Shown one piece after another: positions 15,256 through 39,149 of a stretch of 64,000 bases of DNA (position 1 is the stretch's first letter; every line of letters starts with the position of its first letter). The stretch spans positions 576,001-640,000 of the forward strand of contig CAWETW010000001.1 of the NCBI GenBank assembly GCA_963812155.1. The letters are read 5' to 3'. The DNA is from Vulcanimicrobiota bacterium (GTDB lineage Bacteria > Vulcanimicrobiota > Vulcanimicrobiia > Vulcanimicrobiales > Vulcanimicrobiaceae). The notes under the pieces were generated by a model that saw only the letters and a list, made by a program, of their open reading frames with translations, did not search any database and was not told the origin of the DNA. Both the position numbers and the translations under genes were made by a program.

Positions 15256-16023
15256 CTAGTCTTGGCGGAGGAGCCGGTAAAATCCGCGGCTCTCAGAGAA
15301 CGTGACCTTGCTGCCGAGCCACTGCTCTCGCGGAATGCGGCGGCGCTCACGACGGCTGCCGACGCCTTCGCGTGAAGAGTAGCGCGCCGCTGCGAGCTGC
15401 CCCGTCTTTTGCGTCCAGCCGCTTCCACCGGTGATGCTGAAGGTGCCGATATAGCCGCCGCCCAGCAGTTGGAACGGCTGCGTAATGCGCTGCTGTCTGT
15501 CGAACTGGGTGCTCGACGGCTTTCGAAACGATTCAAACCATGCGGGATAGACGAAATCCGAGACGAGCACGCCGTCGATCTCGTAGCCGTATTGATCGTC
15601 CTCGCACGCATCGCAGATTTCGTAGGCGTAGAGCGTACCCGTCGTCGCGTCGGTTTGGGCGAAGGCTGTCAGCGTGATATCGGGATCGGCCAGCATCTCC
15701 AACATTTCGTGACTGACCGTCACGCTCCAGCTCGCTTTATTCTGAATGTCCCCTGCTGCGAACACTTTCGCCAAGGGCAGGCCCTCGTTGGTCAAATCGT
15801 GGTATCCGAGCGACCCGGCTTGATCGGCGTTGTCGAGCACGGTAATCCACCAGCTTCCGGCCGGCGGCGTTGCGCTTTGCGAATAGAACGACAGCGTCGC
15901 GGTGGAGCCGTACGCCGGCGCAAAATCCTGGGTCACCTGTTTTTGCAAGGCCGGAACGATGGCTTGAACGTCTGCATCCTTCAAGACGGTGCTCGCATTA
16001 ATGATCGCGATGTTCGCGGACAT
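15256..16023 (-). CDS. Hypothetical zincin-like protein (HExxE motif)
   Basis: GYHD, SHEMLEMLADP, EICDACE, VSDFVYPAWF motifs; GGAGG RBS. Confidence 0.75.
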   Translation of the reverse strand: MSANIAIINASTVLKDADVQAIVPALQKQVTQDFAPAYGSTATLSFYSQSATPPAGSWWITVLDNADQAGSLGYHDLTNEGLPLAKVFAAGDIQNKASWSVTVSHEMLEMLADPDITLTAFAQTDATTGTLYAYEICDACEDDQYGYEIDGVLVSDFVYPAWFESFRKPSSTQFDRQQRITQPFQLLGGGYIGTFSITGGSGWTQKTGQLAAARYSSREGVGSRRERRRIPREQWLGSKVTFSESRGFYRLLRQD

Positions 16024-16150
16024 TCGTCACACCTCCGTAGCTCGCGCGATGCGGATGGATTTCTCCCGAGCAGCCGAGCAGGACCTGCGCAATCGTCGCA
16101 AAACGCTCTCTTGAAAGAGCCGAATGCCGGACTCGAAGGAGGCGTTCTCC

Positions 16151-17179
16151 ATGACACCTTTCTTGACCGCAATCGTCGGGCTCATCGGCGTGTACGTGGC
16201 ATTCGCGCTGGCAGCGTCGTGGATCAACGAGCAAATCGCCACGGCACTGCAACTCCGCGCTAAAACGCTCATTGCCGGGGTCCGCGCGATGATCGGCGAT
16301 AGCGCGGCTGCCGACTTCTTCAATCACCCGCTGATCGCTTCGCTCGCGGATACAAAGGGGCAATCGCGAAGCCGGTGGCGCGCACTCACCGGCCTAACGT
16401 TCGAGAATCAGCGCATACCGGACGCGGCGGCGACGCCGCCCAGCGACGACGCCAAGGCGCTCAAGGTACCCGCGTACGTGAGCGCCGAGCACTTCGCCGC
16501 GGTGATCGTCGACGTGCTGCGCAAATCCCCGAACCCCAACGCGGCCGCAACCTTCGGCTTGACGGCCGGCGACGTGGCCGCGGGGATCAACGCGCTCGGC
16601 GGCGCGAATAATCCGTACAAACCGCTGTACGACGTCCTCCTTCCGATTTGGAACGACGCGCGCGCCGACTACGACACCTTCGTTGCGGGATTGTGTTCGT
16701 GGTACGACAGCCACATGGACCGCGTTAGCGGCTGGTACAAGCGCAGCGCCCAAACGATACTCGTCTACATCGCCTTGTTCATCGCCATCGGTCTCAACGT
16801 CGACTCGGTGAAGATCGTTCAAGAGCTACAAAAAAATACGGCGCTGGCGAACAACCTTGCCGCGACGACGCTCGCGTACTATCAAACCCACGCGACGCAG
16901 ACGCCGTCGCCTTCGGCCTCGCCGTCACCGTCGCTGCCGTGCAACGCGGATTGCCAAACGGAACTCTCGCAACTCCCCATCGGGTGGACGCCGGCTCGAT
17001 TGAAAGACGGCACGCAATCGTTGGCGGCGGTGCTGCTGAAGCTTTTCGGGTTCCTCATTACGACCCTCGCAATTTTGCTCGGCGCCCCATTCTGGTTCGA
17101 TCTCTTGGGCACGATCGTCAACGTTCGCTCGGCCGGACACAAGCCGGCTCCGAGCGATTCTGCGAGCGGTTCGTCGTGA
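16151..17179 (+). CDS. Conserved hypothetical membrane protein (GAPFWFD family)
   Basis: Three hydrophobic segments; WYDSHMDRVSGWYKR and LLGAPFWFDLL; AAGGAGG RBS. Confidence 0.85.
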   Translation: MTPFLTAIVGLIGVYVAFALAASWINEQIATALQLRAKTLIAGVRAMIGDSAAADFFNHPLIASLADTKGQSRSRWRALTGLTFENQRIPDAAATPPSDDAKALKVPAYVSAEHFAAVIVDVLRKSPNPNAAATFGLTAGDVAAGINALGGANNPYKPLYDVLLPIWNDARADYDTFVAGLCSWYDSHMDRVSGWYKRSAQTILVYIALFIAIGLNVDSVKIVQELQKNTALANNLAATTLAYYQTHATQTPSPSASPSPSLPCNADCQTELSQLPIGWTPARLKDGTQSLAAVLLKLFGFLITTLAILLGAPFWFDLLGTIVNVRSAGHKPAPSDSASGSS

Positions 17180-18219
17180 GCCTGCGCGCGCTCGTTCTGG
17201 GAGCCGGCGGCGCGCAGGGCGCTTACGAAGCCGGCGCAGTTGCGGCGCTTTGCCAAAACGGCGAGTTCGATATCGTCGCCGGCACGGCGGCCGGTGCCGT
17301 CAATGCGGCGTTGGCCGCGCAAGGCGACGCAGCGGCGCTGGAAACGTTGTGGCTGTCCTTACCGGGGCGCAAGCTGGTCGCGCCGATTTCCGTTCAAAGC
17401 AGTTTCGAGGCATTTCTCAATGCCTTCGCCGAGTGGCACACGCTGCCGTCGAGCGCGCAGGCAACGTATGCGCCGCGCTTGATCCTCTTGTGGTCGCAGA
17501 TCGGCTCGCCGCATGCATTGCTCTCGCTGCTCGGCGTGCTCGACCCCGCGCCGCTGGAGACGCTGCTGCGGCAGTTTGCGTCGTTCGAAAAAATCCGGAA
17601 CACGCTCATCGTCACCGCGAATACGCTCGCGATGGCGCCGGCCGCGTTCCACGTTTTTCGTGGCGACGCGATGCCGAACGAGCCGGCCTTTCAATCGGGC
17701 GCCGGAATAGAGACGCATGCGATGACGAACGATAGCTACGCCGGCGTGCTCCTCGCGTCGTCGGCCGTCCCCACGGCCTTCGCTCCAGTCGCGGTGAACG
17801 TCAATGGCACGCCGCAATTCTTTACCGGAGGCGCGGCGTGCGCGCCGATCGGGCTCGCGGTCGCCGCTGGTGCCGACGAGGTCGTCGTCGTGCGTTCGCG
17901 GCCTCCCGCCGATTCGGGCACCGGCGCGATTCCAGGAAATCTCGTCGAACTCGGCTTCGCGTCGCAAAGCGCGATGCTCGACGCGATCCTCGAAAACGAT
18001 TTACGCGCCGCCGGATTATGCAACGCCGCGCTCCTCAACGTGGCCAGCGCATGGCCTGCGGTGCAATCGCGACTCAAAGGAAAACGGCGGATTTCGCTCT
18101 TCTGCGTTCGTCCCGAAGTGCCGTTTACGATTGCGGCGAGCGATTTCTCAGATTCGGGCAAACTCAAAGCTGCCTACGACCAAGGCTTCCAAGACGGGCA
18201 ACACCCCCAGCCGTACTGA
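17176..18219 (+). CDS. Patatin-like phospholipase-fold protein with substituted catalytic dyad
   Basis: GAGGAQGAYEAG glycine loop, GTAAG in place of GxSxG, ASSAVP, FTGG in place of DGG; GTGA overlap with upstream gene. Confidence 0.85.
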   Translation: MSLRALVLGAGGAQGAYEAGAVAALCQNGEFDIVAGTAAGAVNAALAAQGDAAALETLWLSLPGRKLVAPISVQSSFEAFLNAFAEWHTLPSSAQATYAPRLILLWSQIGSPHALLSLLGVLDPAPLETLLRQFASFEKIRNTLIVTANTLAMAPAAFHVFRGDAMPNEPAFQSGAGIETHAMTNDSYAGVLLASSAVPTAFAPVAVNVNGTPQFFTGGAACAPIGLAVAAGADEVVVVRSRPPADSGTGAIPGNLVELGFASQSAMLDAILENDLRAAGLCNAALLNVASAWPAVQSRLKGKRRISLFCVRPEVPFTIAASDFSDSGKLKAAYDQGFQDGQHPQPY

Positions 18220-18246
18220 GCGAAGGCCGCCGGCTGCGCGGTTTTC

Positions 18247-19269
18247 TTACGCGTCGAGAACGGTTTGCCAGCCGGCCCAGCAGGTTTCGCGCCGTCCCAT
18301 CGTCTCGCCGAGGTGCGTGCGGGCGTTTTCGGCGACGCGGCGGTGCTCCGCCGGATTCATCGCGAGAATGCTCGCGTAGTAACTCATTTCGTCGGAGCTC
18401 GATCCCATGTAGCCGGTTTCGCCGTGCACGACGAACTCGGGGAACGCAAAGTCGCGCTCGACCACGGCCACCGCGCCGTACGCATAGGCCTCGAACAAGA
18501 CGCGCGGACAGTTTTCGCGCGAGCCGCCCGTCTTGTGAATCATCGTATCGATCGTATCGAAGAATTGCTCCGCCGAAATCGAGTTCGGCGACCACGTTTG
18601 CCAGTCGAGCGTCGCCGGCGCGCGGCCGATTCGGCCGGCCGCCTTCGGACCGTAGCCGAGGATGTACACCTTCTTCTTCACGCCGCTAGGCACGAGCACG
18701 CGTTCGAAAATGCGCCAGGTGTCGGCGGCGTATTTATTGGCGTCGTCGCGCGACACGCGTCCGATCCGATAGAACTCCTTCCACGGCCGATAGCGCCACT
18801 CGATGCGGGCGGTGTTGAAATACGGCGTGTAGGGGAAGCTCCGCACGACCGGCGCGATTTGCTCGAGTTGCGGCGTCAGCATGTTTCGCTGATACTGGCT
18901 CTGGAAGCCGAAGTAATCGATCCAGCCGTTGCGATGCGCCTCTTTCTCGCGCTCGAACAGCCACGTCATACAGTTGAACCAAATGACTCTGCGAGGCCGG
19001 CCGGCTTCGACGATCGCCGGCAGATGCTCCAGAAACCGGCCGTTGCAGAAACTGACTACCGTGCGGTCTTTGAAGACGTCGTCACGATAGGCGTGCACCG
19101 TGCAGCCGCGCTCCACCACCGTGGCTTTCATGCGCTCGTCGCAGCCGAACATCGGCACCAAATGCAATTCGACGCCGTAGGAAACGAGCAAATCGATGAG
19201 GTGATCGAGTTCCGTATCGGCGCCGCCGTAGAACGAGGGAAAGCCGGCGACCCATATCTCGCGCGGCAC
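18247..19269 (-). CDS. GT-B fold glycosyltransferase (GT4-like)
   Basis: N-terminal YGGADTE; ENCPRVLFEAYAYG (Ex7E); EFVVHGETGY. Confidence 0.85.
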   Translation of the reverse strand: MPREIWVAGFPSFYGGADTELDHLIDLLVSYGVELHLVPMFGCDERMKATVVERGCTVHAYRDDVFKDRTVVSFCNGRFLEHLPAIVEAGRPRRVIWFNCMTWLFEREKEAHRNGWIDYFGFQSQYQRNMLTPQLEQIAPVVRSFPYTPYFNTARIEWRYRPWKEFYRIGRVSRDDANKYAADTWRIFERVLVPSGVKKKVYILGYGPKAAGRIGRAPATLDWQTWSPNSISAEQFFDTIDTMIHKTGGSRENCPRVLFEAYAYGAVAVVERDFAFPEFVVHGETGYMGSSSDEMSYYASILAMNPAEHRRVAENARTHLGETMGRRETCWAGWQTVLDA

Positions 19270-19302
19270 TACGCTACACCCAGAAGCGCACCAGTGCCTT
19301 CG

Positions 19303-20271
19303 CTAGGGTTTCGATTTTCGCGACGGCGGTGGTTTGCCGGCGCTCGACGACGGCGACGCGCTCGAACTGCTGCCGGCAGCATTCCCGTTGGGCGGCGCCG
19401 CAGCGGCGTTCGACTGCAGATTCGGAATCGCGCCGAACGACAGCGACACGGTCGAAAGCGTGTTGGGATCGGGCAGTGCGGTCGGATCGGGAAAGACGAG
19501 TTGCGCTTCGGCGGTTCCCGAACTGCGGTCGACGCTCAACAACGCCTTCACTTGAACGTTGAGGTTCGTCAGCGTCGTCTGCACGCCGGGACTCCCCAGC
19601 GCCGCGGTCTGGACTTGATCGAGCACGCCTTTCAACGATTGCGCGACTTCCAACGGCGACGCAGTCTGTGGGCCGGACGGCGTCCCAGCTTGCGCTTGCG
19701 CCGCCGAAAGGCTCGCCTGCAGCCTCGTAATTTGGGCGTTCTGGTCGGCGATCGTGTTACTCAGCGCCGCGTTTTGCGTGTTGAGCGTGCCGACTTGCGA
19801 CTGGGTGTCGCTCAACTGCGATTGCAAGGTGCTGTTCGCCGCATCTTGGTTCGTGATGAAGGTGCGCAGGTTCGCGACCGTACCGGAGATCGCCGGTGCC
19901 GCGCCGGCGACCGTCGAGAGCGTGTTCATGATGTCGGTGATGTTCGGAATGATCGTGAAGCTGACCGTTTTCGAGGCCACCGCCGGAGACGGATTCGAAA
20001 CGGCGATCGAAGCCGAGCCGACGGCGGCGATGTCGGTCGCCAGAATGGCGGCCGTGACCTGCGTCGTGCCGACGAACGTCGTGGCGCGTGCCGCGCCGTT
20101 CCACGTCACCGTCGAACCCGTCGTAAATCCGCTGCCCGTGACGGTAAGGGTAAAGGCCGGACCGCCGACCGTGGCACCGGATGGTGCGACGGACCCGATC
20201 GCCGGCGCCAAAAGGAACGGATGGATATTTATCCCGGTTGTAACGCCGATTAAATTCTCTTCTTCGGCCAC
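19303..20271 (-). CDS. IPT/TIG Ig-like domain + coiled coil + small C-terminal alpha/beta domain, Ser-rich tail
   Basis: PAIGSVAPS..FTLTVTGSGF..STVTWNG; heptad Q/L/N stretch; GTG at 20271 after AGGAG. Confidence 0.8.
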   Translation of the reverse strand: MAEEENLIGVTTGINIHPFLLAPAIGSVAPSGATVGGPAFTLTVTGSGFTTGSTVTWNGAARATTFVGTTQVTAAILATDIAAVGSASIAVSNPSPAVASKTVSFTIIPNITDIMNTLSTVAGAAPAISGTVANLRTFITNQDAANSTLQSQLSDTQSQVGTLNTQNAALSNTIADQNAQITRLQASLSAAQAQAGTPSGPQTASPLEVAQSLKGVLDQVQTAALGSPGVQTTLTNLNVQVKALLSVDRSSGTAEAQLVFPDPTALPDPNTLSTVSLSFGAIPNLQSNAAAAPPNGNAAGSSSSASPSSSAGKPPPSRKSKP

Positions 20272-20434: not shown

Positions 20435-21307
20435 ATGCCACTCGTTGCAGATAACATCGAACAAGCACGCAGCGCGTACGCCGCGCTCGAAACGCGCGCC
20501 GTTACCGCGGAAACGCACGTCGCCACCCTTCAAGCATCGCTACAAACGCTCCAGGCCGTCGTTCCAACGCTGGTCGACCGAAACAACTTGCTCACCCAAT
20601 ACACCGTCGGTCAAGTACAGCAGAACTCCCAACTCGTCTCCCAGCAGGCCCAGCAAGTCTCGCCCGATATCCCGCTCGACGGCTTCATCGCTTCGCTGGG
20701 CCTTGCCACCGCGCTCGCCGAATCCACCATGCCGGATCGCACGGTGAATTCGCTTGCGTCGACCGTGCAGTGTTTTCTTTCGTTGAGCGCTCCCGCTGCC
20801 GACGGTTCCCGTTCGGTCGGACTGCGATTTTACCAGCCCGAACTCGGGGCGCCGACGTCGCTCGCGACGACGTCGTTCGAAATCGCAAAGGTTCCAACCG
20901 ATCCCGGTACGAGCACGCCGCGCAGCCTCTACACGGTGTTGGCCGACAAGCAATCGCTGTACGCCGATTCGTTCTGGATGCCGTTTACCGGCGGTACGCC
21001 GGCGGTGGCACCGGCCGCGCAAATCGTCATCGAAAGCAGCGAGATGTTGTCGTCGGTATCGTCGTGGACGTTTGCATTCATTCTGCAGGAGAGCGGCAAG
21101 ATTGCAGCGTTCGAAGCCAACCTCGCCACGCTGCTGGGGAGCGGCGCGACCGCAGCCGCCGCCGCACCGTTTGCGGCCGCGGTAGCCGCGCTTGCCGCGT
21201 TGCTCAAACGCCTCACGGGCAACACTGCGGCGCCCGTCGCCGGCGATCTCTACGCACTTTCCGCAGCGCTCGATCTCACGACCAAAACTGCCGCGCTGAT
21301 TCCGTGA
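20435..21307 (+). CDS. Hypothetical protein (N-terminal coiled coil, central alpha/beta module, Ala-rich helices)
   Basis: 290-aa ORF, GAGG RBS, GTGA overlap with next gene. Confidence 0.75.
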   Translation: MPLVADNIEQARSAYAALETRAVTAETHVATLQASLQTLQAVVPTLVDRNNLLTQYTVGQVQQNSQLVSQQAQQVSPDIPLDGFIASLGLATALAESTMPDRTVNSLASTVQCFLSLSAPAADGSRSVGLRFYQPELGAPTSLATTSFEIAKVPTDPGTSTPRSLYTVLADKQSLYADSFWMPFTGGTPAVAPAAQIVIESSEMLSSVSSWTFAFILQESGKIAAFEANLATLLGSGATAAAAAPFAAAVAALAALLKRLTGNTAAPVAGDLYALSAALDLTTKTAALIP

Positions 21308-23149
21308 CCGAGCGTCTTTCGGCCCGCGAGAAGTTCAAAGCCCACAAAGCGGAGCGCCGCGAACTGCTGCTGACCGAACGGCGCCGAGCCGAGGACGCAT
21401 CGGTCGAACGCGCCGCGCTGAAATGGCAAATGCGGCGCGACGCGAGGGCGGCGGCTGCGGCGGCAGCCGAACCGGCGACAGCCGAAGGCGGCGAGCCCGA
21501 GGCCCCGATCCCCGAGCGCGAAGAGCCGGCCGTCGAGCGCGAGCGCCAACCCCGCCGGCGGTATCACGAAGAGGCCGCGCTACGGCCAAAGCGCGAGCCC
21601 GAAGTCATCAAACCGTCGCGCAAAGCGCAGCCGGAGCGCAAAGCGCAGCCGGAGCCCGAACCGCTCGAAGTGCTCGAGCTTGCGCCGCCGCGCGACGTCG
21701 ATCGCAGCAAGGCTCGTCTCGATGCGGAGCTTCTCGAACGGCACGAAGCGAAATCGGCCCGCAGACGCGAAAAGCGCGCCGAAGCCCGCGAACATTCGCG
21801 CCGCACCGAACTCGAAGCGATTGCGATCGTGGAACAAACGCGCATCCTGGAACGAGAAACCCCGGTCGCACCAGAGCCCGAACCCGAACCGCCAAAACCG
21901 ACTGCCAAGCCTGAGGAACACGTTCAATGGCGTAGCGATCGCAAAGCGCGCAAACGCGACAAGGCGACGGCCGCGCAAAGCCTGCAACGCGAGGCGGAGA
22001 TTAAGCCGCGAACGGGAGGCCACACTTCGGAAAGCCGCGACGCAACACGCCCGCGCCGAACGAAGACATACCGCGAAAGCGGAAGCCCAGCGCTTACGCG
22101 AAGCCGTACCCGAGCCTGAGGCCGCGCCCGAGCCGCAACCTGCGCCCGTTGCCGCCGAGCCCGTAAACGAAGACGCCGGACTGCCGCCTCCCGGCGACGA
22201 GGCGCCGGGAAAACGGCTGCTTCGTTTGCGCACCGCCGGCGGTTTTATCGTCGACGAGCTGGGCCAATCGTTTCACGTACGCGGCGTAACGATTCTGGGG
22301 TTGGATGCGCTTGCGCCGGCCGGCGGTCAGTCGTTGCGCGACGCGCTCTCGCTCGACGATACCAATCTCAATGCGCTGACGAACTGGTCGATCAACGTCG
22401 TTCGCGTCCCGTTTTCAGCGGCGACCATCATGTCGGGAAACGGCCACCTCACGGCGGCAACGATTCTCAGCGGTTTGGACGACCTCATCGCCGCACTGGT
22501 CGAAACGAAAACGTACACGCTGCTGAGTTTGCAGGCGCCGATTGCGGCCGGTGCCACCGCCGCGCCGCTGCCCGATCAAACGACGTTCGATGCCTGGAGT
22601 TTGCTGGCTACGCGTTACGCCGGCGAAACGGGCGCGCTATTCGAAATCTTTTCGTCGCCGCTGGCGATTTCGGGCGATTGGCTCGATGCGGCGCAGATGT
22701 TGATCGGCGCGATTCGCAGCCGGCATCCCTCATCGCTGTTGTTTGCCGGCAACGGGTCGGGAGGTTCGGATGTCGCCGGGCTGCCGCTGCGGTTTTCGAC
22801 CGGCGACCCGACGCCGAACGTCGTCTCGACGATTCGCGTGACCGCCGGTACCCCGTTTCCCGCCGACGAATACGCGCTCGCCGCACTTGCCGAGGCGTTT
22901 CCGGTCGTCGCGACCGATTGGGCGGCGGCGGAAGCTTCGAGCCTCGACCGCGCGCCCGAACTTGCCGCCAATACCTTCGCGCGGCTCGGAATCGGATGGG
23001 TGGCGGGAAACTGGAACGCCGATCCTCGGCTCGTCGCCTCTTCGCAAACCCGCGGCATGGCTGCGACGCGTTGGGGAAACACCGTGGTGCGCGCGATGAC
23101 GCTGGCGCAGCGCGAGCCTTTAGAAAAAGTGCTCCCCGACACCACGTAG
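21304..23149 (+). CDS. Highly charged E/R/K/P-rich region fused (frameshift near 22005) to a GH5-like TIM barrel with degenerate active site
   Basis: LRTAGGFIVDELGQSFHVRGV, INVVRVPF, W..LATRY, LFEIFSSP, PVVATDW, GIGWVA; frames 20770-22119 and 21680-23149 join. Confidence 0.7.
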
Positions 23150-23213: not shown

Positions 23214-23600
23214 ATGATTCGGGTGTTGGGTGCCTCACGGGCTACGCGCTTTCTCGCGTACGGCGCCGCATTAATTCTTACCGTTTTTGTCGTCTCCGCC
23301 GCGTTCGAGCGTCTCGTCGAGTCGCGCATGATGCCGGAGAGCTTTCTATTGGAGTTCGGTATCTTCGCCGCGCTCTGGTTTGTCGGCGATTGGCTTGCCG
23401 GCCGGCTCTTTCGGGCCGCGCTGTTGCCGTTGCTCTTGGAGCGGCGCCGCGCGTTCGCGCGCCTGCTCGCGCTCTTAGCCGCGCTATCGATCGCGTGCGT
23501 GTGGTTTCGCTTCGGCAGCTTTACGGCCGAGTTTGCGGCGTTCGCATTGCTGTGGGCGTTGCTCGATCGCGCCCTTGAGCACGGTCGTAAACTGACGTGG
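23214..23600 (+). CDS. Small multi-pass membrane protein or N-terminal membrane domain of the downstream propeller protein (3' end uncertain)
   Basis: AGGAGG RBS 7 nt before ATG; about four hydrophobic helices; the frame becomes non-protein-like after ~23600. Confidence 0.5.
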
Positions 23601-28374: not shown

Positions 28375-28691
28375 TGTTGTTCCTCAAGGTCCGTCGAATC
28401 CGACACCGGCGAATCCGAACGCTGGACCTGCCTGCTTGCGTTTTCGACGAAGAGCCGGTGCAGCTCCTTTGCCGCGACGCCCTTCGGATTATAGCTGACG
28501 CCGCCGACGAATTCGACCGACGGGTTGCGGTGGAGCGCCGCCGCCTGGCTGTCGTCGATCGCCACGATCGGCCCGTTCCGCGTGACCATCAGGATGAATC
28601 CGCCCAAACGCTTGACCTGGAGCGCCACCGCGCGGGAGGCTTCCTCGCTGTAGCCCCCTTTGAAGGTAACGATGTACATGTTCATGGCCAT
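28371..28691 (-). CDS. Small protein resembling peptidase inhibitor I9 / subtilisin propeptide
   Basis: MYIVTFK...LGG.I...GPIVAIDDSQAAALHRNPSVEFV pattern; ATGA overlap with the next gene. Confidence 0.6.
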   Translation of the reverse strand: MAMNMYIVTFKGGYSEEASRAVALQVKRLGGFILMVTRNGPIVAIDDSQAAALHRNPSVEFVGGVSYNPKGVAAKELHRLFVENASRQVQRSDSPVSDSTDLEEQQ

Positions 28692-30547: not shown

Positions 30548-30555
30548 CGCTCTGC

Positions 30556-31467
30556 CTATGCGCCCTCCGGCTCGGCATCGAGCGCGACCCATTTCGCCCG
30601 TACCTGCAGTTGATAGCGCTTCTTGCGAAGGTACACGCGAGCAACGTGGGTGTCGTCGAAGAAATCTGCAATCAGGGCCGGTCGCGCGCCGAACGGATTC
30701 AGACCGGGCGATTCGAGCACGGCCGCTTCGCCGGGAAGCGTGCCTGCATCGACGGCGAAAATCGTCGGACGGGAACGTGCCTGTGCCCGGGCGAGGCGCG
30801 CGTAGAGCCGGTGGTACCCTTTCGTCAGCACCATGCGTTCGCCGGCCATCGCAACGCTGACGTGGCCCATGCTTTGAATCGGCCCAAACAATCCTTGCGG
30901 CGTCATGCCGAACGTGAACTCGGCGTGCGGCAAATCGATATCAATATCGGTGTCGAGCATGCGCTTCGTCAGCCTCACCGACAGCTCGGGATTCCCTTGC
31001 GAGACCGGAAGCGCGCTCGCGAGCCAGCCGTCGTCGTCGGCGCATTCATCGCCGTACTGCTCGGCGCGATCGAGAGCGACGTAGTATTGACCGGCAACCA
31101 GCCGCAGCGGATCGACTTTCACCACCTCGCCGGGCGCCGCGCCGGCGGCGGCCCGGAACGCCGCAAATTGCCGCGCCCGTTCTTCTTCTTCGGCAGTCAG
31201 CGGCAGGCGCTCGGGCGCACGTGCGTGGCGTTCGCTCACCGATTCGGCGCGCGCGCGGTAGGTTTGCCATAACTCGTACGCGGAACGCTCGTTCAACGGA
31301 ACGACCGAAATGCAATCGTCGAGCAAGAAGCGCATTGCCGCATCGCGTTCCATCCAGCCGAGCAATGCGACGCCGTCGTGCGCATTCTCCGGCCGGCGTT
31401 CCTGAACGTATCGCGCCGGACCCGATCGCGCCGCACCCGTCCGCTCGCCGCCGATCCTAGGCCGCAT
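30556..31467 (-). CDS. Hypothetical protein with possible ParB/Srx-like GxHR motif
   Basis: VKVDPLRLVAGQ and VLTKGYHRLYA; start uncertain. Confidence 0.6.
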   Translation of the reverse strand: MRPRIGGERTGAARSGPARYVQERRPENAHDGVALLGWMERDAAMRFLLDDCISVVPLNERSAYELWQTYRARAESVSERHARAPERLPLTAEEEERARQFAAFRAAAGAAPGEVVKVDPLRLVAGQYYVALDRAEQYGDECADDDGWLASALPVSQGNPELSVRLTKRMLDTDIDIDLPHAEFTFGMTPQGLFGPIQSMGHVSVAMAGERMVLTKGYHRLYARLARAQARSRPTIFAVDAGTLPGEAAVLESPGLNPFGARPALIADFFDDTHVARVYLRKKRYQLQVRAKWVALDAEPEGA

Positions 31468-31526
31468 AGCGCGACCTTTGAAAATCGCCGTCGCGTCTCC
31501 TCGCGATTGTGTTACAATCGCTGCCG

Positions 31527-33245
31527 ATGACGTACGACATCGTCGTCGTCGGCGGCAGTTTGGGCGGATGCGCTGCCGCCATGGCGGCGTCGGGCGGAGG
31601 CTTCTCGGTGTGCCTGCTCGAGGCAAGTGCGTGGCTGGGCGGTCAGTATTCCGCTCAAGGGGTGACGCGTCCCGACGACAGCCAATACACGCCGTCGGTC
31701 GGAAGCACCGCCGGATACCGCGCATTCCAACAGGCCGTTCGCACGCACTATCGCAGCGGTTTTACGTTGTCGCCGGCGGGCGCGGCGCAAAAGGCGTTCA
31801 ACCCGGGCGGAGTCGACGGCGGCTTCGCCACCAGTCCGGCCGTGGCGCACGACGTCTTACTGCAGCAGTTGCAACGGCCGAACGTGCACGTTCGATTGAA
31901 CGCGCGCGTGACGGCTGCCGCCGTGCAAGGAACGTCGATCGCGAGCGTGACCGCCGTCGACGGCAACGGCGTGCAGACGGTGTTCGAAGCGAAATACTTT
32001 CTCGACGCGACCGACCTCGGAGAGTTGCTGCACTTGGCGGGCGTGGAATACGCGCTCGGCGCGGAAAGCCGCGACGAAACGCACGAACCGAACGCGCCGC
32101 CGGTGGCGCGGCCCGGCTGGATTCAGCCGATAACCGTTGTGGCGGCGCTGGAGCGGCGGCCCGACGGCGAAGTTCACACGATCGGCGAGCCCGCGAACTA
32201 CCAGGCGCTCAAAGCACAACAGCGCTTTACGGTTCGAAGCGGTTACGTCAAAACGGTTTTTCAGACGCCCGCCGATCTGTGGGGCTACCGGCGCTATATT
32301 GCCGCAGCGAATTTCAACGATCCAGCGCTTCCCTACGACTTGAGCATGCTCAACATGGGAAGCAACGACTATCAGGCCGCGGCGATTCCCACGGGCGATG
32401 CCGATAAGGATACGGCGATCGTCGAAGCCGCCCGGCAGGCGACGCTCGCGTACGTGTATTGGCTGCAAACCGAGGCTCCGCGCGACGACGGCCGCGGCAG
32501 CGGATATCCGAATCTGCGGCTGTGTCCCGAGGCGTTTACGACGGCCGACGGAACCGCCGCCCAGCCATACATTCGCGAGTCACGCCGCATTAAAGCGCAA
32601 TACACGATCGTTCAGCAGGACGTCGATCGAGCGTCCAATCCGGGGCCGCGCGCTAGGAACTACGACGATTCGTGCGGCATCGGATTCTATGGCGCGCTCG
32701 ACATTCACGGGCTGGCCGGCGCCGGCATGCCGGAACAGTGGATTCCGATCAATCCGTTCGAGATTCCGGTGCGCTCGCTGTTGCCCGTGAGGGTTACGAA
32801 CTTGCTGCCCGCATGCAAGAACATCGGCACGACCCACATCACCAACGGCGCCTACCGTCTGCATCCGGTCGAATGGGCGATCGGCGAAGCGGCGGGAACG
32901 CTCGCGCTCGACGCATTGGCGAACGGCATCGCGCCGGGCGGCTACCCCAGCGACGCCTCGAAGCTGCGCGCATATCAACAGCGTTTGCTGCGACGCGGCG
33001 CGCCCATATTTTGGTGGACGGACGTGCGTTTTGGCGACGACTGGTTTGCCGCGGCGCACTTGATGGGCGTTTCCGGGCTGATGAGCGGCACGGATGCTAC
33101 GATGAATTTCTATCCCGCGCAACCCTTTACGGCCGCCGCCCGCACCGCCGTCGAGCAGAAGCTCGGCCAGTCTTTCGACTGGCCGAGCGATCCGATGACG
33201 AGAAGCGCGACGGCACAATGGCTCGTCGATCAACTAGGCTGGTAG
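31527..33245 (+). CDS. FAD-dependent oxidoreductase (FAD_oxidored-like)
   Basis: DIVVVGGSLGG, WLGGQ, LDATDLG, YIRESRR, KNIGTTHITNGAYRLHP. Confidence 0.9.
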   Translation: MTYDIVVVGGSLGGCAAAMAASGGGFSVCLLEASAWLGGQYSAQGVTRPDDSQYTPSVGSTAGYRAFQQAVRTHYRSGFTLSPAGAAQKAFNPGGVDGGFATSPAVAHDVLLQQLQRPNVHVRLNARVTAAAVQGTSIASVTAVDGNGVQTVFEAKYFLDATDLGELLHLAGVEYALGAESRDETHEPNAPPVARPGWIQPITVVAALERRPDGEVHTIGEPANYQALKAQQRFTVRSGYVKTVFQTPADLWGYRRYIAAANFNDPALPYDLSMLNMGSNDYQAAAIPTGDADKDTAIVEAARQATLAYVYWLQTEAPRDDGRGSGYPNLRLCPEAFTTADGTAAQPYIRESRRIKAQYTIVQQDVDRASNPGPRARNYDDSCGIGFYGALDIHGLAGAGMPEQWIPINPFEIPVRSLLPVRVTNLLPACKNIGTTHITNGAYRLHPVEWAIGEAAGTLALDALANGIAPGGYPSDASKLRAYQQRLLRRGAPIFWWTDVRFGDDWFAAAHLMGVSGLMSGTDATMNFYPAQPFTAAARTAVEQKLGQSFDWPSDPMTRSATAQWLVDQLGW

Positions 33246-33249
33246 CGTC

Positions 33250-34880
33250 ACCGCGTATGGCGATGATGCGGGGTTCGGCGCGAACCGCCGTCTCCACCGC
33301 TGTCTCCGCCGCCGCCGTCATCTGACGAACTCGAATCGCCGGAGTCGTCGGAGCTCGAGGAATCGTCGGAGCTCGGGAATCGTCGGAACTCGAGGAATCT
33401 CGGACGAACTCGAATCGTCGGAACTCGAGGAGTCATCGGACGAACTCGAATCGTCGGAGCTCGAGGAATCGTCGGACGAACTCGGAATCGTCGGAACTCG
33501 ACGAATCGTCGGACGAACTGGAATCGTCGGAACTCGAGGAATCATCGGACGAACTCGAATCGTCGGAACTCGACGAATCATCGGACGAACTCGAATCGTC
33601 GGAACTCGACGAATCGTCGGACGAGCTGGAATCATCGGAACTCGAGGAATCGTCGGACGAACTCGAATCGTCGGAGCTCGAGGAATCGTCGGACGAACTC
33701 GAATCGTCGGAGCTCGAGGAATCGTCGGACGAACTCGAATCGTCGGAACTCGACGAATCGCCGGACGAACTCGACGATGTGCCTCCGCCTCCCGACGTCG
33801 ACGAACCGCCGCCGCCGGCAGAGCGACGACGTGCCACCGCCTCCCGACGTCGACGACACCGCCGCCGCCGGCAGAGCTCGACGACGTACCGCCGCCACCG
33901 GCAGAGCTTGACGACGTGCCGCCGCCCGCGGAACTCGACGACGTGCCGGCCGAACTCGATGACGTTGAGGTTCCGCTTCCGGCGTTAACCACGCTGAGGC
34001 GAGGGCCGTCGAGCGCGGCATTCATGCGGGCGACCTGCCCCAGCGAAAACATGACCATCACGGCATCGTCGACGTAATCCATGTAGTTCATGAACATGTC
34101 GCCGTTGGGACCGTTACTGCACGAAACGTGCGGGAACTTCGGCGTGCCGTAGTTCGGGCTCTGTTGCGTCGGCGTATCTGAAACTTGATCGGAACCGCTG
34201 CAGTCGTTCGTGTCGCCCCAGATATGAATGAGATTGAACCAGTGGCCGCACTCGTGCACGGCGGTACGGCCGAGGTTGAACGGCGCCGCGGCCGCGCCGG
34301 TGGTGCCGAACGCGGTATAGAGAATCACGACGCCGTCGGTCGCCGCCGGTCCGCCGGGGAACTGCGCGTAGCCAAGCAATCCGCCGCCCAAATTGCAGAC
34401 CCAGAAGTTCAGATACTTATCGCTCGGCCACGGATCGGCGCCGCCCTTGGCGGCCGACTTTACCGAATCGTCGGTCGAGAACGACGCGCTCGTCGTCTGC
34501 GTGCGCGTGATTCCGTTGGTCGTGGCGCCCTTGGGATCGGTGGTCGCCATGAAGAACTGAATCTGCGGATTGCCGATAACGCCCTGAAAGACCGACGGAA
34601 CGCTAGTCTGCGAGTTCTGCTTCTGATAATCGGCGTTGAGAACGGGGATTTGACTCGTGATTTGTGCGTCGGAAATGTTTTGCGCGGTCGTGTTGTACAC
34701 GACGTGAACGACGACGGGAATCTTGACGACCGCCGCACGCGACGTTCCCCTGGTACGGATGTGCGATTCGGTAAATGCTTCGATCGCCGCTCGGCGCTCG
34801 GCGTATCCCGGCACGGTCGCGAGCAGGCGCTGATGTACGTCGTACGTTCCACAAGATCGGCGGCGCGGTAGATCGGGCAT
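33250..34880 (-). CDS. M43 (ulilysin/pappalysin-like) zinc metalloprotease with Gly/Ser linker and (SSSSDD)n tail; frameshifts in the tail, stop uncertain
   Basis: Cys-switch [24 protein letters not shown], Met-turn MNYMDY; AAGGAG RBS. Confidence 0.9.
33320..33780 (-). repeat. Coding tandem repeat of about 25 SSSSDD units
   Basis: Plus strand shows alternating GAATCGTCGGACGAACTC / GAATCGTCGGAACTCGAG units. Confidence 0.9.
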
Positions 34881-35411: not shown

Positions 35412-36347
35412 ATGAATCGCCGCCTCGTGCCGATCTTCGTTGCGATCGGCATCTTTTTGACCGGATGTCGCTCGACCCCGGACCTCGCGATGGTACAAAA
35501 ATACGCCGAAACGACGGCCGCTGCGGCCGGTTCGTTCGATGCCGTTGCGGCGGACTACGGGCAGACGTGCGTGCGGGCGAACGAATACGAGATGGCACCG
35601 CGCGAGATGCCTTTCGTCGCCTTCACGCTGGCGCCGGGATATGCCGTCGCCGGTTCGCCTCCCGACCAAACGCCTGCGAATATGTTGCAGACCTGCGCCG
35701 GCGCAATTGCAATCGGCGCCGACTGGAGCCGCCACAATGCAGTCGTCCTCGGCTACGTTCAAGCACTCGGCGCGATTGCGTCGGTCGACAACGCTCCGTC
35801 GTTTCAACCGCTCGGAAACGCTCTCGTGGCGCCGGGATTGCTCAGCCAACCTCAGAGCGATGCATTTTCGAGCCTCGCCAATCATATCGCGAACTTCTTC
35901 ATCGTTCAAACGCAACAGCGCGACATTGCCGCGCTCGTCGTACAGGTGGATCCCGATCTCAAAACGGCGATCGACTCTCTGAAGATCGTCGCTTCGAACT
36001 ATTCGGTAAAGCTTTCCACCGAATACGACGTGACGTTCGGATTCTACAACGGGCTGATTCGCTCGGAAATCGGCTCGCGGCCGCCCGCGCAAGGAAAGCT
36101 TCCGCTCAAGCTCAAGGAGCGCATTCTGCGGCAACGCGCCGCAATGATCGCCGCGCTGCGGGCGATCAACGCAAAACGTGCCGCCTCGATCGCTTATGCA
36201 AAGGCGCTCGATTCTATTTACGCGACCCACGAGCAGCTCAAGAATAGCAGCGAACACCCCTCCACCGACGATCTCGTCAAGGCCGTCGAACAAAATCTTG
36301 CGACGTTTGCCGGCGATATCGCCACAATTCAACAGGCGGTGCGATAA
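35412..36347 (+). CDS. Helical lipoprotein, hypothetical
   Basis: MNRR + hydrophobic core + LTGC lipobox. Confidence 0.8.
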   Translation: MNRRLVPIFVAIGIFLTGCRSTPDLAMVQKYAETTAAAAGSFDAVAADYGQTCVRANEYEMAPREMPFVAFTLAPGYAVAGSPPDQTPANMLQTCAGAIAIGADWSRHNAVVLGYVQALGAIASVDNAPSFQPLGNALVAPGLLSQPQSDAFSSLANHIANFFIVQTQQRDIAALVVQVDPDLKTAIDSLKIVASNYSVKLSTEYDVTFGFYNGLIRSEIGSRPPAQGKLPLKLKERILRQRAAMIAALRAINAKRAASIAYAKALDSIYATHEQLKNSSEHPSTDDLVKAVEQNLATFAGDIATIQQAVR

Positions 36348-36754
36348 TGGCAGCAGGTGCTCTCGACGCGCTTCAAGTCGCACAGCTCGCGCAAGACTTC
36401 GCGAGCCTCTCGTCGGTGCCGAGAAACATTCTCAACGATCCGAACTTCAACCTCACGGCCGGACAGGTCGCGACCTTGAACAGCGACATGACGACCCTGG
36501 GAAACATCGCTTCGAGCCTCGCCGATTGGTCGTCGAAAATCGCGTTCGACGATGCGGCGAAAGCGTTCTCGAACATTTCGTCCGCAACCAAAACTGGAAA
36601 CGCTCAGGCACACGCGTTGCAAGCCGACGTCTCGAAACTGTCGAAGGTCATTACCATTTTGGGGAAGGCGGTCGCCCTCGGGATCGCGTTTAGCACCGGC
36701 GGCGCATTCGCGGTGATAGCCGCAGCCGCGTCGCTCGCTCAAGCGGCGGCGTAA
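36347..36754 (+). CDS. Small helical protein with hydrophobic C-terminus
   Basis: TAATG overlap with the lipoprotein gene. Confidence 0.75.
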   Translation: MAAGALDALQVAQLAQDFASLSSVPRNILNDPNFNLTAGQVATLNSDMTTLGNIASSLADWSSKIAFDDAAKAFSNISSATKTGNAQAHALQADVSKLSKVITILGKAVALGIAFSTGGAFAVIAAAASLAQAAA

Positions 36755-36758
36755 CGCG

Positions 36759-37514
36759 GTGCAGCCGGCGCCGGGGACGACTTTCAAAGATTTCCGGCTC
36801 TACGGCCGCGCATCCGAACTCACGCCGCCGCGCGACGTGTATTGCGCCGGGTCCGGGCCGCCGGTGATCGTTTTCCACGAACTGTACGGCGCGTCACCGG
36901 AAGACTTCGCATTTGCGGGGCGGCTCGTCGACGCGGGCTTTACGGTTTTCGTGCCGGTTCTGTTCGGCAAGCCGAACGCACGCGGCTTGGGCTTTTTCTG
37001 CGTCGCCCACGAGTTCGCGGTTCTTTCCTCGTGCCGCTCGAGCCCGATGGCGGAGTGGGGACGCTCGCTCGGGCGTCTCATCTCCCAGGATTTCGGGGGA
37101 CGGGGAATCGGCGCGATCGGGCTGTGCCTCACGGGCGGCTTCGCCCTAACGATGATGCTCGATCCGTGGGTTTTGGCGCCGGTCGTATCCGAACCGGCGC
37201 TCCCGTTTGGGCTGACGACTTCGCTGAAGTCGGCGCTTCCGCTTTCGTGCGAAGACGTGAGCGCCATACGGCAGCGCATTGCCGCGGGCGCCGAAATCCT
37301 CGCGTTTCGGTTCGCCGGCGATTGGATATCGCCGGAACTTCGCGACCTGACGCTGCGCTCGACGTTCGACAACGTTCGCGGAAACGGCCGGCTCAAGCCG
37401 ACGTGCCCGCACGCGCACGCGGTGTTCACCACGCACTACCGCGATACACCCGGCTCGTCCACGCGGGCCGCCTACGACGAACTCATCGCCTTTCTGAACG
37501 AGAAGTTGGGATGA
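36759..37514 (+). CDS. Dienelactone hydrolase family protein
   Basis: VIVFHELYG, nucleophile elbow GLCLTGG, AHAVF. Confidence 0.85.
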   Translation: MQPAPGTTFKDFRLYGRASELTPPRDVYCAGSGPPVIVFHELYGASPEDFAFAGRLVDAGFTVFVPVLFGKPNARGLGFFCVAHEFAVLSSCRSSPMAEWGRSLGRLISQDFGGRGIGAIGLCLTGGFALTMMLDPWVLAPVVSEPALPFGLTTSLKSALPLSCEDVSAIRQRIAAGAEILAFRFAGDWISPELRDLTLRSTFDNVRGNGRLKPTCPHAHAVFTTHYRDTPGSSTRAAYDELIAFLNEKLG

Positions 37515-39149
37515 CACAAAACAAAACCGCGGTCGTCGTGATTCACGGCATCCATCCGACGGCCCGCTTCGAGATTCAAGACCTGTTCGGTACGCAGCTG
37601 CACCGGCGCCTTAACGAGATGCCGGGCGGCCACGAGTGGAAACTAAATATTCTCTGGCCGAAGATTGCGAAACCAAACGCGGACCCGGGCGATGTTCATG
37701 CGACCGCGTTGCGGGTCTGCGAACGCACGGATAACGCCGACGATCCCAAACGGTCGTACTTTGACGTTTTCGAAGCCTACTGGAGCCCGATCGATAAGAA
37801 TCAGACGACGGTCGGCAAGATGCTGGCGTGGCTCGCCGACGCGATGTTCGTTCCGCTCAATGCCAGCGCTCGGCTGTACTCCAGCTTTCGGGAAAGTGGC
37901 GTTCGATCTCGTCTTGCTGGTAGCCGTTTTGGCGATCAGCCTCGCCTTTCTGCTTGCGGCCATATGGGCAGCCGATTGGGGCTACAATATTTTCTCCTAC
38001 GCAGCGGCTTGTGCATTGAACAACCACGCGCCGCAATGCGGAACTGGGGTACCGTCGCTCTTCGACTTCACCTTGCACCCTATATCATCGCTGCAGAAAT
38101 TCGCATGGCCGGCAATCGCTTACGTCGCCGTACTCTTTATCGGCGCGTACGCCGCGACACAATTAGACTATCAGCCTCTATCATACTTGTGCGGAGTCTT
38201 ACCGGCGCAAGCGGGTAAGCCGGACGGCTCCCGGAGTGCTCGAGCCGCGTCGGCTCTGGCGAGTGTGGTTCATGGCTTTGCTTGCAATCGTAGCCGGTTT
38301 CGGCCTTAGGGTGGTGGCCGTGGTTCAGACCTTTCGTGCCGGATCCGACCCACCGGCTCATGTGGGCGCACACTAACGGTGGTTGCAATCGTCGGCTTCT
38401 TTCGAGCGGCGTTGGGCACGCTCAACGAGTTTTTCGTTAACACGCTCGGCGACGTGCAAATATATACCACGCACGATGAAAACTCGGCGTTTTACAAGTT
38501 TCGCAAAGAGATCGTCGAGCTCGTCGAAGGGGTGATTCTCCAGGTTTTGCGTGCCGAATCCGGCCCGCGTCGACGCTGGAGGTGGACCCGTTCCAGCCGA
38601 CGGTTTTTGCCATACGCGGCGTCAACGATCCCACGCCGCTCTACGATCGGGTCGTCGTCGCGGCGCATAGCCTCGGATCGACGATCGGCTGGACGCCTTC
38701 TTAGCGTCCACGAGCTGACGCAGGAGGGTGGCGTTACTTCCGGAGCAATGGAATCGCGTCCGCGCGTTCGTCACGTTTGGCTCGTCGCTCGAAAAGACGA
38801 AGTTCTTCTTCGACGTAAAACAGCCGACGGTTTCGGCTTCGGCGGATCATTGGCGCAACGACGTCTACGGCAAGCTCTTCACCGAACGATTTTGCATTCG
38901 TCAGCTCCGACCCCGCGACACCGAATGTTTTGGGCGAACCACTGGTACTTTACCGACCTCGTCGCCAATCACATCGAATCCTATACGGACGGCGCCACGA
39001 CGCAGATTTGCGAAAATACGCGGTTAAAGTCAAGTTTTCACTCTTGTCATCCGTGGGTGCACAGCGATTACCTTTGGGACGAAAACTTCTGGCGCCGCCC
39101 CGACGATTCGAAGACGCACGGCATGCTCGACGTGCTGCTGTTAGATTAG
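37511..39149 (+). pseudogene. Membrane-associated alpha/beta-hydrolase-like protein with multiple frameshifts
   Basis: VVVIHGI, EAYWSP, TM helices, LGDVQIY, AHSLGS near 38660, FVTFGSSLEK, HSDYLWD spread over several frames. Confidence 0.7.

Follow-up and report, generated by a model that had tools for sequence, protein, structure and literature searches.

Several protein assemblies that perforate membranes as beta-barrels are heteromeric, among them the complement membrane attack complex (MAC), the bicomponent leukocidins and the aerolysin-type toxins, in which binding and pore formation are divided between subunits. To our knowledge, bacterial beta-pores are built from one or two subunit types. 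Pepco, a helix-plus-hairpin protein, forms a 9-10-mer barrel with a charged lumen that is activated by a protease and kills its producer (10.1101/2025.11.14.688446). The Ser/Asp tails of the staphylococcal SDR adhesins are modified by SdgA/SdgB (PMC3794999). The literature searched held only passing mentions of DUF2589, with no function given, nothing on PF11655 and only an unrelated listing of DUF4332.

We have analysed a window of 64,000 nucleotides from a Vulcanimicrobiota genome, in which an earlier note, made from the sequence alone, had proposed one undescribed system of ca. 20 tightly packed genes at 15256-39149. Re-examination of the open reading frames gave ca. 21 genes (g01-g21), indeed close-packed, with 4-nt start/stop overlaps at g02/g03, g06/g07, g11/g12 and g20/g21 and gaps of 6-8 nt in the core. 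These genes are real, but they are not one 20-gene system: the core amounts to ca. 8 genes and the rest are separable. The supposed bounds, a truncated IS110 transposase (14309-15208, minus strand; Pfam/NCBIfam match to model positions 1-180 of 343) and a pair of 69-nt palindromic repeats (39149-39217 and 39225-39293, 94% identical), are both present, but a role as limits of the system is not supported; the IS110 was not seen beside g01 in the related genome G205. Frame shifts occur within g07, g08, g13, g16 and g21, and since the orthologues of the GT4, propeller and M43 genes in locus L001 are single open frames, the breaks are probably assembly errors. In the 1047-aa ORF at 23214, a small membrane gene and the propeller had been artificially joined.

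The ordered core encodes a GT4 glycosyltransferase, an I9-like protein, the paralogues A, B and C, the subunits D and E, and a pseudo-GH5 protein, F. Of 49 genome loci, 26 (type 1) keep this order, and so do long metagenome loci, across several phyla with Eremiobacterota, Acidobacteriota and Actinomycetota among them, so that the co-occurrence in other genomes on which the idea of an undescribed conserved system hinged was found, for this part of the region. The remaining 23 loci represent a second subtype, headed by TPR and L7/L12-like genes, in which a larger number of paralogues and the presence of PASTA or OmpA domains are usual. Half of the loci have a gene for a GT2-like enzyme. The core is rare: among 301 genomes from the host phylum A was found in 3, with 1 of 201 in a further count, and relatives of A were absent from the viral contigs searched. 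Cultured carriers exist for this subtype (Actinoplanes, Frankia) and for the second (Halomonas, Psychromonas, Marinibactrum, Desulfonema), and genetics is therefore feasible. The operon is undescribed in the literature searched (subscription journals and supplements lie outside that search). Conserved genes for release, transport or clear-cut immunity were lacking from the 26 type-1 loci and their flanking proteins, and no wall hydrolase family was detected among 58 flanking proteins of 27 loci (E 1e-6); amidase/PG-binding genes are neighbours in L039. PADLOC models gave only weak coiled-coil and patatin matches to core proteins (E 0.001-0.008), with no sensor or defence family among them.

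Core A (g11, 27763-28374, minus strand; 371 homologues) has a helix and a long beta-hairpin and is the predicted pore-lining subunit. It is duplicated in many Acidobacteriota. Aligned with nine DUF2589 members, A gave an hhalign P of 68.8 (E 4.5e-5, 167 columns) versus P <=0.3 for six unrelated controls, and the Atlas linked it to DUF2589 clusters (0.95, 30 of 30 hits). None of 46 members of the A family reached the PF11655 gathering cut-off (23 bits), and neither did any window protein, the best type-2 paralogue scoring 15.8 bits. On these profile comparisons A is a remote DUF2589 relative below the Pfam cut-off, and the likeness first suspected extends over the whole domain. The claim of three paralogous helix-and-hairpin proteins was equally sound. 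B (g10, 27177-27755, minus strand; 24 of 26 loci) aligns with A at P 100, has a shorter hairpin (median 59 residues versus 67) and lacks the hydrophobic tip, while C (g09, 26469-27170, minus strand; 25 of 26 loci) aligns at P 99.4-99.8, has a polar loop and ends in a domain of PepSY fold (26472-26732). The AF2 model of C (pLDDT 86.8) had as top VIA hits 4exr, 5boi, 2gu3, 3nqz and 4k90 (Z 5.5-6.3, residues ca. 147-233), all of which we take to be PepSY structures. PASTA replaces this domain in the second subtype and was found in 38 of 50 C relatives scanned.

The amphipathic tip of the A hairpin (residues 129-154; 27913-27990, minus strand) showed, across 96 rows, a strict hydrophobic/polar alternation and an FLF tip, both absent from B and C. 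Charged residues were found at 8 of 1248 outer-face versus 245 of 1152 inner-face positions, and 244 of those 245 were acidic. Such a conserved amphipathic beta-hairpin of bilayer length is of the type seen in beta-pore toxins. The canonical DUF2589 clusters have the same division into tipped and untipped paralogues. Covariation (388 rows, Neff 151) was strongest along three adjacent anti-diagonals, as fits the hairpin, whose intra- and inter-chain pairs look alike in this signal; positions on the second strand carry a numbering offset in this output. The AF2 model of A is of low confidence (pLDDT 54.7), and a fold search of PDB representatives with it returned helix matches only (Z <=5.1) and barely probed the hairpin; a four-copy complex prediction scored 0.06, with the fold of A itself uncertain. 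Fold searches for aerolysin/MACPF cores gave lists filled by helices and the PepSY domain, again with the low-confidence model of A. The search of C against PDB and viral models gave nothing at E 0.001, and profiles of A, C, g12 and g14 drew weak matches at best from PDB sequences.

Two more distant look-alikes had been suggested, and one of them stood. Subunit E (g06, 20435-21307, plus strand; 16 of 26 loci), with a coiled coil, a probable distant paralogue domain and a helical bundle, is colinear with C (P 63.5, E 6.8e-5, 86 columns), but D gave no significant alignment to A or C (P <=0.6). D (g05, 19303-20271, minus strand; 20 of 26 loci) combines an IPT/TIG domain (TIG E 1.3e-4; CoaZ E 5.9e-26, Pfam/NCBIfam), a coiled coil, a short hairpin domain and a Ser tail; in L002 and L003 it continues into a Ser/Asp-tailed propeller (fusions of 1449 and 1504 aa). 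F (g07, 21304-23149, plus strand; 17 of 26 loci; frame shift near 21900-22100) consists of a highly charged helical stalk and one or two copies of a pseudo-GH5 domain (Pfam Cellulase, E 1.8e-9). At what we assume to be the GH5 catalytic positions, the acid/base Glu is gone in 46 of 47 F domains and both catalytic Glu are present in one of 47, in line with the fold lacking catalytic residues in the earlier note. Cargo domains are exchanged on D and F across loci.

Both predicted GT4 genes were recovered by the Pfam scan. The core enzyme, g13 (28698-30547, minus strand; ca. 630 aa, frame shift near 30282), is present in 26 of 26 type-1 loci (GT1_4 E 1.4e-8; PHROG 2170 E 4e-27), is an open frame in L001, and has an EGFGLPTLQA motif in the window and 22 loci. 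The other, g04 or GT4a (18247-19269, minus strand; 4 of 301 phylum genomes), directly follows a Ser/Asp-tailed propeller in four of the six genomes having it. From this genomic linkage, GT4a probably glycosylates Ser/Asp repeats, in keeping with the glycosylation theme of the earlier note. GT4a had no match to a solved Sdg enzyme, and a search of 251 Acidobacteriota, run without a positive control, was blank. The propeller here is g08 (23594-26357, plus strand; BNR-type, NF045728 E 3.9e-21; frame shift near 24197, uninterrupted 969-aa frame in L001), whose (SSSSDD)n tracts lie at 25593-25718 and 26250-26342. A small multi-helix membrane gene (23214-23603, plus strand, end approximate) was found among 129 loci only in L001-L003, and a look-alike lies beside the propeller in G176. 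The pair of GT4a and propeller also occurs without the core. The second Ser/Asp-tailed protein, g16 (33248-34880, minus strand; 1 of 26 type-1 loci), is an ulilysin-like M43 zinc protease with an HExxHxxxxxH motif and full-length similarity to ulilysin (PDB 8cd8, E 7.8e-113; an orthologue), its tail (33414-33756) being frame-shifted. As had been seen for two proteins, the (SSSSDD)n tracts, at four places in the whole 2.96-Mb assembly, are confined to g08 and g16.

Regulation by proteases, as proposed, is only suggested by these data. Of the two zinc-protease-like genes, g16 is genuine, but g01 (15256-16023, minus strand; only G205 among the relatives' regions fetched) lacks a second His after HEMLE and has no family or PDB match; a PHI-1/EXORDIUM-like identity would be speculative. 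The conserved core has no protease, but in some loci g14 has one immediately next to it, on its far side, with no signal peptide to be seen (S53 in 16 of 37 with enough flank, in one clade; M43 in the window and L001). No trypsin- or caspase-like protease fused to a sensor was found in the window or the 58 flanking proteins. The I9-like inhibitor, g12 (28371-28691, minus strand; 106 aa; 22 of 26 loci), remains a lead, its probable I9/prodomain-like fold pointing weakly to the subtilisin E propeptide (1scj_B, E 0.99) and to inhibitor/prodomain clusters (Atlas 0.83). A comparison with the prodomain of an S8 protease beside a DUF2589 cluster gave no match. The frequent partner g14 (30556-31467, minus strand; 14 of 26 loci, in either orientation) is conserved, with a KGYHRLY motif and no Pfam or PDB match; a motif likeness to ParB/Srx found no support in those searches. 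As had been noted for most core proteins, no export signal was seen on core or cargo, on the basis of a hydropathy scan rather than a dedicated signal-peptide predictor.

The separable genes include g02, a membrane protein (family in 45 of 301 genomes), and the patatin g03 (16124-18219, plus strand), a pair also present in G269, G176 and G149, where A has no match. The window copy reads GTAAG and TGG, so that catalytic Ser and Asp are absent, as had been noticed, while five of five close orthologues keep GTS/DGG; judged by these motifs, g03 is an inactive copy of a separable module. The FAD-dependent oxidoreductase g15 (31509-33245, strand corrected to plus; PF12831 E 5.8e-84) occurs in 1 of 26 loci. 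Between 34922 and 39149 lie the lipocalin-like g17 (minus strand; 1 of 26 loci) and, on the plus strand, the lipoprotein g18, g19, the dienelactone hydrolase g20 and the frame-shifted g21 (g18-g21, 0 of 26), in agreement with the suspicion that genes at 35-39 kb were unrelated cargo. The genes g18-g19 adjoin g02-g03 in G049 and a g02 relative in G144, and g02-g03 and GT4a are also near the core in G049 and G305.

In agreement with the earlier note, which also saw no phage-tail gene, the 30 ORFs scanned gave no T6SS or eCIS gene among their Pfam/NCBIfam hits, yet carriers of the locus are enriched for eCIS elsewhere in the genome. A tube gene was found in 17 of 26 carrier genomes (kin among them not being independent) against 23 of 150 and 21 of 151 genomes sampled as background, and gave no match in 9 of 26 type-1 and 7 of 13 type-2 genomes. 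The window's genome and L001-L003 have it, the former on another contig; the eCIS adjoins the cluster in G305 and is within ca. 30 kb in G049, and sheath and tube fell within the fetched flank in just 1 of 129 loci.

Of the particle, pore or coat first imagined, the sequence evidence favours a pore. We tentatively propose, at somewhat less than an even chance, that the core is a glycosylated hetero-oligomeric beta-barrel pore without signal peptides, aimed at other cells, a small bacterial counterpart of the MAC. The paralogous subunits would align side by side through their long hairpins and N-terminal helices; A, often duplicated, would supply the membrane-inserting hairpin and acidic lumen, and B, C, E and probably D, without the tip (a pattern seen in B and C), would act as initiator or capping subunits. 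The subunits carry swappable domains, putatively envelope-binding (TIG, PepSY, pseudo-GH5 and propeller here; PASTA, OmpA and LamG in the second subtype). The signal-less parts would be glycosylated in the cytoplasm by g13 (and the GT2-like enzyme in half of the loci), and the Ser/Asp-tailed cargo by GT4a. Release might occur by lysis or another non-Sec route, after which wall or glycan of the target would be bound and its membrane perforated. The weakest step is that prodomain-like folds (g12 and the PepSY of C) probably keep the complex latent until a neighbouring protease acts. In favour of such a pore are the gene order shared across phyla (26 of 49 genome loci, and metagenome loci), a scattered distribution of the kind found for conflict islands (3 of 301 and 1 of 201 genomes), the tip of A and its absence from B and C, the same split in canonical DUF2589 clusters, the precedent of protease-activated barrels formed by Pepco-like proteins (10.1101/2025.11.14.688446), appended domains of kinds that belong outside the cytoplasm (PASTA in 38 of 50 C relatives, OmpA, LamG, the amidase/PG-binding neighbours in L039), the swapping of cargo on D and F and the eCIS tube in 17 of 26 carriers. 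Against it count the low-confidence model of A, the lack of a core protease and of a conserved release, transporter or clear immunity gene, the non-significant Trypco2 links of A, C, D and E (P <=1.7), and the nine of 26 carriers without a tube match, together with the non-independence of kin; an amphipathic hairpin would also be compatible with a soluble barrel, or a filament, in which that face is hidden.

The same barrel could work in the opposite direction, breaching the producer's own membrane from inside, either to let out signal-less cargo such as the propeller or the M43 or S53 proteases (holin/T10SS-like) or as a suicide pore upon infection. This is unlikely but a serious candidate: no export signals were seen on core or cargo, Pepco kills its producer (10.1101/2025.11.14.688446), and TPR and L7/L12-like genes head the second subtype. 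However, a hairpin keeps both of its ends on the side from which it inserts, which would leave PASTA, OmpA and lectin-like domains turned towards the cytoplasm, and sensor or defence families (PADLOC), flanking wall hydrolases and viral relatives of A were all lacking in our searches. A glycosylated ring, tube or fibre displaying adhesive or hydrolytic domains on the cell surface, with no pore at all, would suit the many paralogues, coiled coils, charged stalk, invariant GT4 and SDR-like Ser/Asp tails (PMC3794999), but it leaves the acidic-faced, bilayer-length tip exclusive to A unexplained and has no conserved anchor or export route, and we find it distinctly improbable. That the subunits are a payload or accessory injected or co-released by a contractile injection system would agree with the tube-carrying genomes, including the window's and L001-L003, and the proximity in G305 and G049; the genomes of both subtypes without a tube match, the near absence of sheath and tube from the flanks and the separate contig here make it quite remote. 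Finally, tight packing and the nearness of g02-g03 and GT4a to the core in G049 and G305 might recommend all ca. 20 genes between IS110 and repeats as one obligatory system, a view largely refuted, with hardly any chance left, by g02-g03 and GT4a-propeller pairs occurring without the core and by g15-g21 in at most 1 of 26 loci.

Taking the target-directed pore a step further, the operon could be a widespread undescribed bacterial analogue of the complement MAC, although we hold this to be rather doubtful. Five to eight paralogous subunits would assemble in order on the target envelope, with swappable binding domains and cargo setting the target, glycosyltransferases shielding the parts and a protease lifting prodomain-like brakes. 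If true, contact weapons or protein-delivery pores of a new, modular class would have come to light, and the DUF2589 superfamily would gain a function. The operon is compact and testable and belongs to a large protein family (1061 clusters at 50% identity) for which the literature searched gives no function. Barrels made up of numerous specialised paralogues whose targeting domains can be exchanged would amount to a new design, paralleling complement in prokaryotes. Besides the staphylococcal one, a second module for glycosylation of Ser/Asp repeats is also indicated.

Compared with SDR/SdgA-SdgB, the locus shares Ser/Asp-rich tails and a dedicated neighbouring GT4 (PMC3794999), but the repeats are (SSSSDD)n instead of (SD)n and the cargo is a propeller or M43 protease without visible signal or wall anchor. 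With eCIS it has in common signal-less, probably lysis-released parts and often the same genomes, whereas the operon has no sheath, tube or baseplate gene. The resemblance to MAC, leukocidins and aerolysin-type toxins (Ser/Thr-rich strands, amphipathic tip, division between binding and pore subunits) is by analogy only, PDB searches, which barely probed the hairpin, giving no sequence or fold match and the core showing no signal peptides. The uncharacterised DUF2589 clusters share the colinear helix-insert-hairpin plan and tandem paralogues, one with a membrane-type tip, and S8 or C1 proteases lie beside two of the four examined; they have two or three subunit genes, unlike the five to eight here with appended domains, GT4 and pseudo-GH5. 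Pepco and Trypco1-2 profiles (PF19493, PF19631, PF24393) matched at sub-threshold levels only (Trypco1 in 3 of 46, E 0.033; Pepco in 1 of 46, E 0.064), with Trypco2 at E 0.023 for one type-2 paralogue and an hhalign P of 36.6 for a mixed type-2 profile. Pepco assembles from copies of a single 117-aa protein and is accompanied by a trypsin or caspase fused to a sensor, whereas the core has numerous paralogues and a far longer hairpin, with neither such a protease nor a significant profile match. Small protomers of helix and hairpin, a hydrophobic exterior and charged lumen (predicted for the core) and a Pro-rich C-terminal extension are common to both (10.1101/2025.11.14.688446; PMC7159879), and the two may work alike.

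Alignment of subunit A gave 49 genome loci and 80 metagenome loci retained out of 136 confirmed. Loci with B, the I9-like g12 or the GT4 gene g13 were called type 1, the subtype of the window, which accounted for 26 of the 49 genome loci and for all 80 from metagenomes. In the 26 type-1 genome loci g13 and A were always present, followed by C (25), B (24), g12 (22), D (20), F (17), E (16) and g14 (14); some of these loci are closely related, so that the counts are not independent, and the absences are partly due to truncation at contig ends and to diverged D and E genes in L020-L023. The order g13-g12-A(-A2)-B-C-D-E-F is repeated in Acidobacteriota, Actinomycetota, a member of the Syntrophobacterales and a gammaproteobacterial bin, with E-F inverted in the window and in L002-L003. 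A GT2-like gene, absent from the window, appears in 13 of the 26, mostly 3' of F. The operon is rare: three of the 301 host-phylum genomes have it, and among 201 Acidobacteriota it occurs in one, the centre genome itself. The remaining 23 genome loci belong to type 2 (L025-L048, e.g., L038:5168-13789) and come from Halomonas, including several cultured ones, Psychromonas, Bacteroidota, Opitutales, Nannocystaceae, Desulfonema and others. The mapped type-2 loci combine an L7/L12-like and a TPR gene with as many as seven paralogues, a helical protein rich in charges, a D-like gene of the Ig/coiled-coil type and a PASTA-bearing C; OmpA or another cargo domain is often found on one paralogue. We conclude that the operon is a real multi-subunit system in two subtypes, and an undescribed one that no known family or system accommodates in the searches made.

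Some further variation was seen around this operon. A large TPR protein lies 3' of the GT2-like gene (L006, L009, L014, L019), in 10 of 129 loci and with at least 84% identity to the L009 copy. In Actinoplanes (L022:13092-16355) and Frankia (L023:12769-15993) F is longer, at ca. 1080 aa, and has several hundred additional residues at its C-terminus; the L022 protein had no Pfam match. Of 108 candidate proteins flanking the related loci 58 were scanned, and none of these belonged to a wall hydrolase family. Upstream of the operon of genome G049 there are ORF pieces (L182, G049:C1:254000-270000) that presumably resemble a Tc-type toxin complex.

Profile comparison showed that A, B and C are paralogous. 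E is a probable distant paralogue, judging from a profile alignment with P 63.5 (a shorter E profile reached P 11 only). D matched its type-2 counterpart (P 50) and neither A nor C, so its paralogy with A-C is unproven. Profile alignment with controls makes A a remote DUF2589 relative that stays below the Pfam cut-off for membership. In its residues 129-154 hydrophobic and polar positions alternate strictly about an FLF tip; with the faces assigned from the same alignment as the counts, charges occupy 8 of 1248 positions on the outer face and 245 of 1152 on the inner one, 244 of them acidic. B and C do not have this amphipathic tip. The C profile covers 1061 clusters at 50% identity, and the AF2 model of C (pLDDT 86.8) shows a long helix and a hairpin, with a C-terminal domain set apart from them. 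The five best fold matches of this domain on the predicted structure (a modest Z of 5.5-6.3) we take to be PepSY-fold proteins. PASTA was found in 38 of 50 C relatives (33 above cut-off), chosen from the best 150 with longer ones favoured. In some C-family proteins (P0225, P0235, P0250, P0255, P0265) a DUF4332 (HhH) domain stands at the N-terminus. In F, a conserved pseudo-GH5 tops a charged stalk. Elsewhere, canonical DUF2589 genes (L220:6861-10298, L221:2963-9101) stand beside a papain-like protease with an I42 inhibitor, and also close to an S8 protease.

The window is a portion of contig C1 in an assembly of 2.96 Mb, and its closest loci are from Eremiobacterota (L001-L003, 75-97% identity in A). 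The earlier note had taken ca. 20 genes at 15256..39149, between an IS110 and a REP pair, as one system. Its genes are indeed there and tightly packed, and both boundary elements exist, the IS110 in truncated form at the left flank and the repeat pair at 39149-39293; however, the system is smaller than these limits. A genome of the same genus, G205, has no IS beside g01. The (SSSSDD)n tracts that had been noticed are real and, across the whole assembly, confined to two genes, both in this locus, while a hydropathy scan agreed with the suggested lack of signal peptides, finding no convincing one at the N-terminus of A-F, g12-g14 or the M43. Five window genes are frame-shifted, probably by assembly errors, since the L001 orthologues of the GT4, propeller and M43 are single open frames. 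Outside the locus, two large neighbouring ORFs (674 and 1307 aa, + strand, 92-5988) had no Pfam match, and at 8652-11183 the GC is lowered (54-57%) and the - strand has broken ORFs with no clear annotation.

Much of the remaining content is separable. The FAD oxidoreductase, M43 and lipocalin genes each occur in one of the 26 type-1 loci and g18-g21 in none. Genes g01-g03, at or past the 10-kb flank, were traced separately from these counts. Relatives of the membrane protein g02 are present in 45 of 301 genomes, all of the host family; the pair of g02 and the patatin g03 lies close to the core in G049 and G305, and is found in G269, G176 and G149, which have no A match. Catalytic motifs are intact in all five close patatin orthologues and lost from the window copy. 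The left and right cargo of the window are probably two halves of one separate module, because in G049 g18-g19 immediately precede g02-g03. This lipoprotein (g18), g19, membrane protein and patatin look like an unstudied unit (window 16124-18219 and 35412-36754; L180:10477-14149; L203). Between GT4a and the patatin, G049 (L180:14248-17428) and G305 (L186:7786-10844) have an NB-ARC/TPR STAND gene and, next to it, one for a 142-aa protein, both starting with the motif G-x-N-x-G-A-I-x-x-G-D-x-N, presumably as in amyloid-signalling receptor/effector pairs. GT4a itself, found in four of 301 genomes plus G305 and G556, is directly 3' of the Ser/Asp-tailed propeller in G049, G305, G556 and G176; the two are 4.3 kb apart in the window, and the contig of G205 is not long enough to tell. 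G176 has the pair without the core, and L002 and L003 have the propeller and Ser/Asp tail fused to D. GT4a and the Ser/Asp cargo are therefore a detachable module, pluggable onto subunit D. GT4a may modify the tail, as suggested by this linkage and by analogy with SdgA/SdgB (PMC3794999).

The core has no protease. Just beyond g14, on the upstream side of the operon, 16 of the 37 loci with enough upstream flank have an S53 protease that carries motifs of the catalytic type and shows no signal peptide; its bearers are probably one clade, because all copies are 59-100% identical to that of L009. In the window and L001 an ulilysin-like M43 occupies the post-g14 region. Together with the I9-like g12 and the PepSY fold in C, these neighbours make protease control plausible, but it is the weakest link of the mechanism.

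The conserved order, the paralogy of A-C, a tip limited to A, swappable envelope-type domains, the invariant GT4 and the patchy spread are directly supported. From them we infer that barrels would assemble side by side, insert into a membrane, be glycosylated and released, and act on a target. We tentatively favour an outward-facing pore whose PASTA, OmpA, TIG and lectin-like domains would bind wall or glycan, because such domains need wall or glycan and would remain on the insertion side of the hairpin. That the breach would be made from inside out is doubtful, and a scaffold that forms no pore is unlikely. Delivery as an eCIS payload seems quite improbable. Of the 26 type-1 genomes (the window's included, L012 excluded) 17 have an eCIS tube gene, as do 6 of 13 type-2 genomes, over a background of 23/150 in the host family and 21/151 in Acidobacteriota, the latter including one genome marked unpublished and the centre genome. 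The eCIS adjoins the operon in G305 and is near it in G049; in the window's genome a frame-shifted cluster (tube, Pvc16, AAA ATPase and baseplate-like genes; L216, L217) sits on a separate contig (C3, ca. 520000-539500). This association marks the carriers as well-armed genomes, without showing dependence.

Among proteins built on a similar plan, Pepco is the best studied: it assembles into 9-10-mer barrels whose lumen is charged, and it kills once its tail has been cleaved (10.1101/2025.11.14.688446). Trypco1/2 are defined as partners of trypsin-like proteases (PMC7159879). The present family falls outside both by their membership tests and may, by analogy, work as they do.
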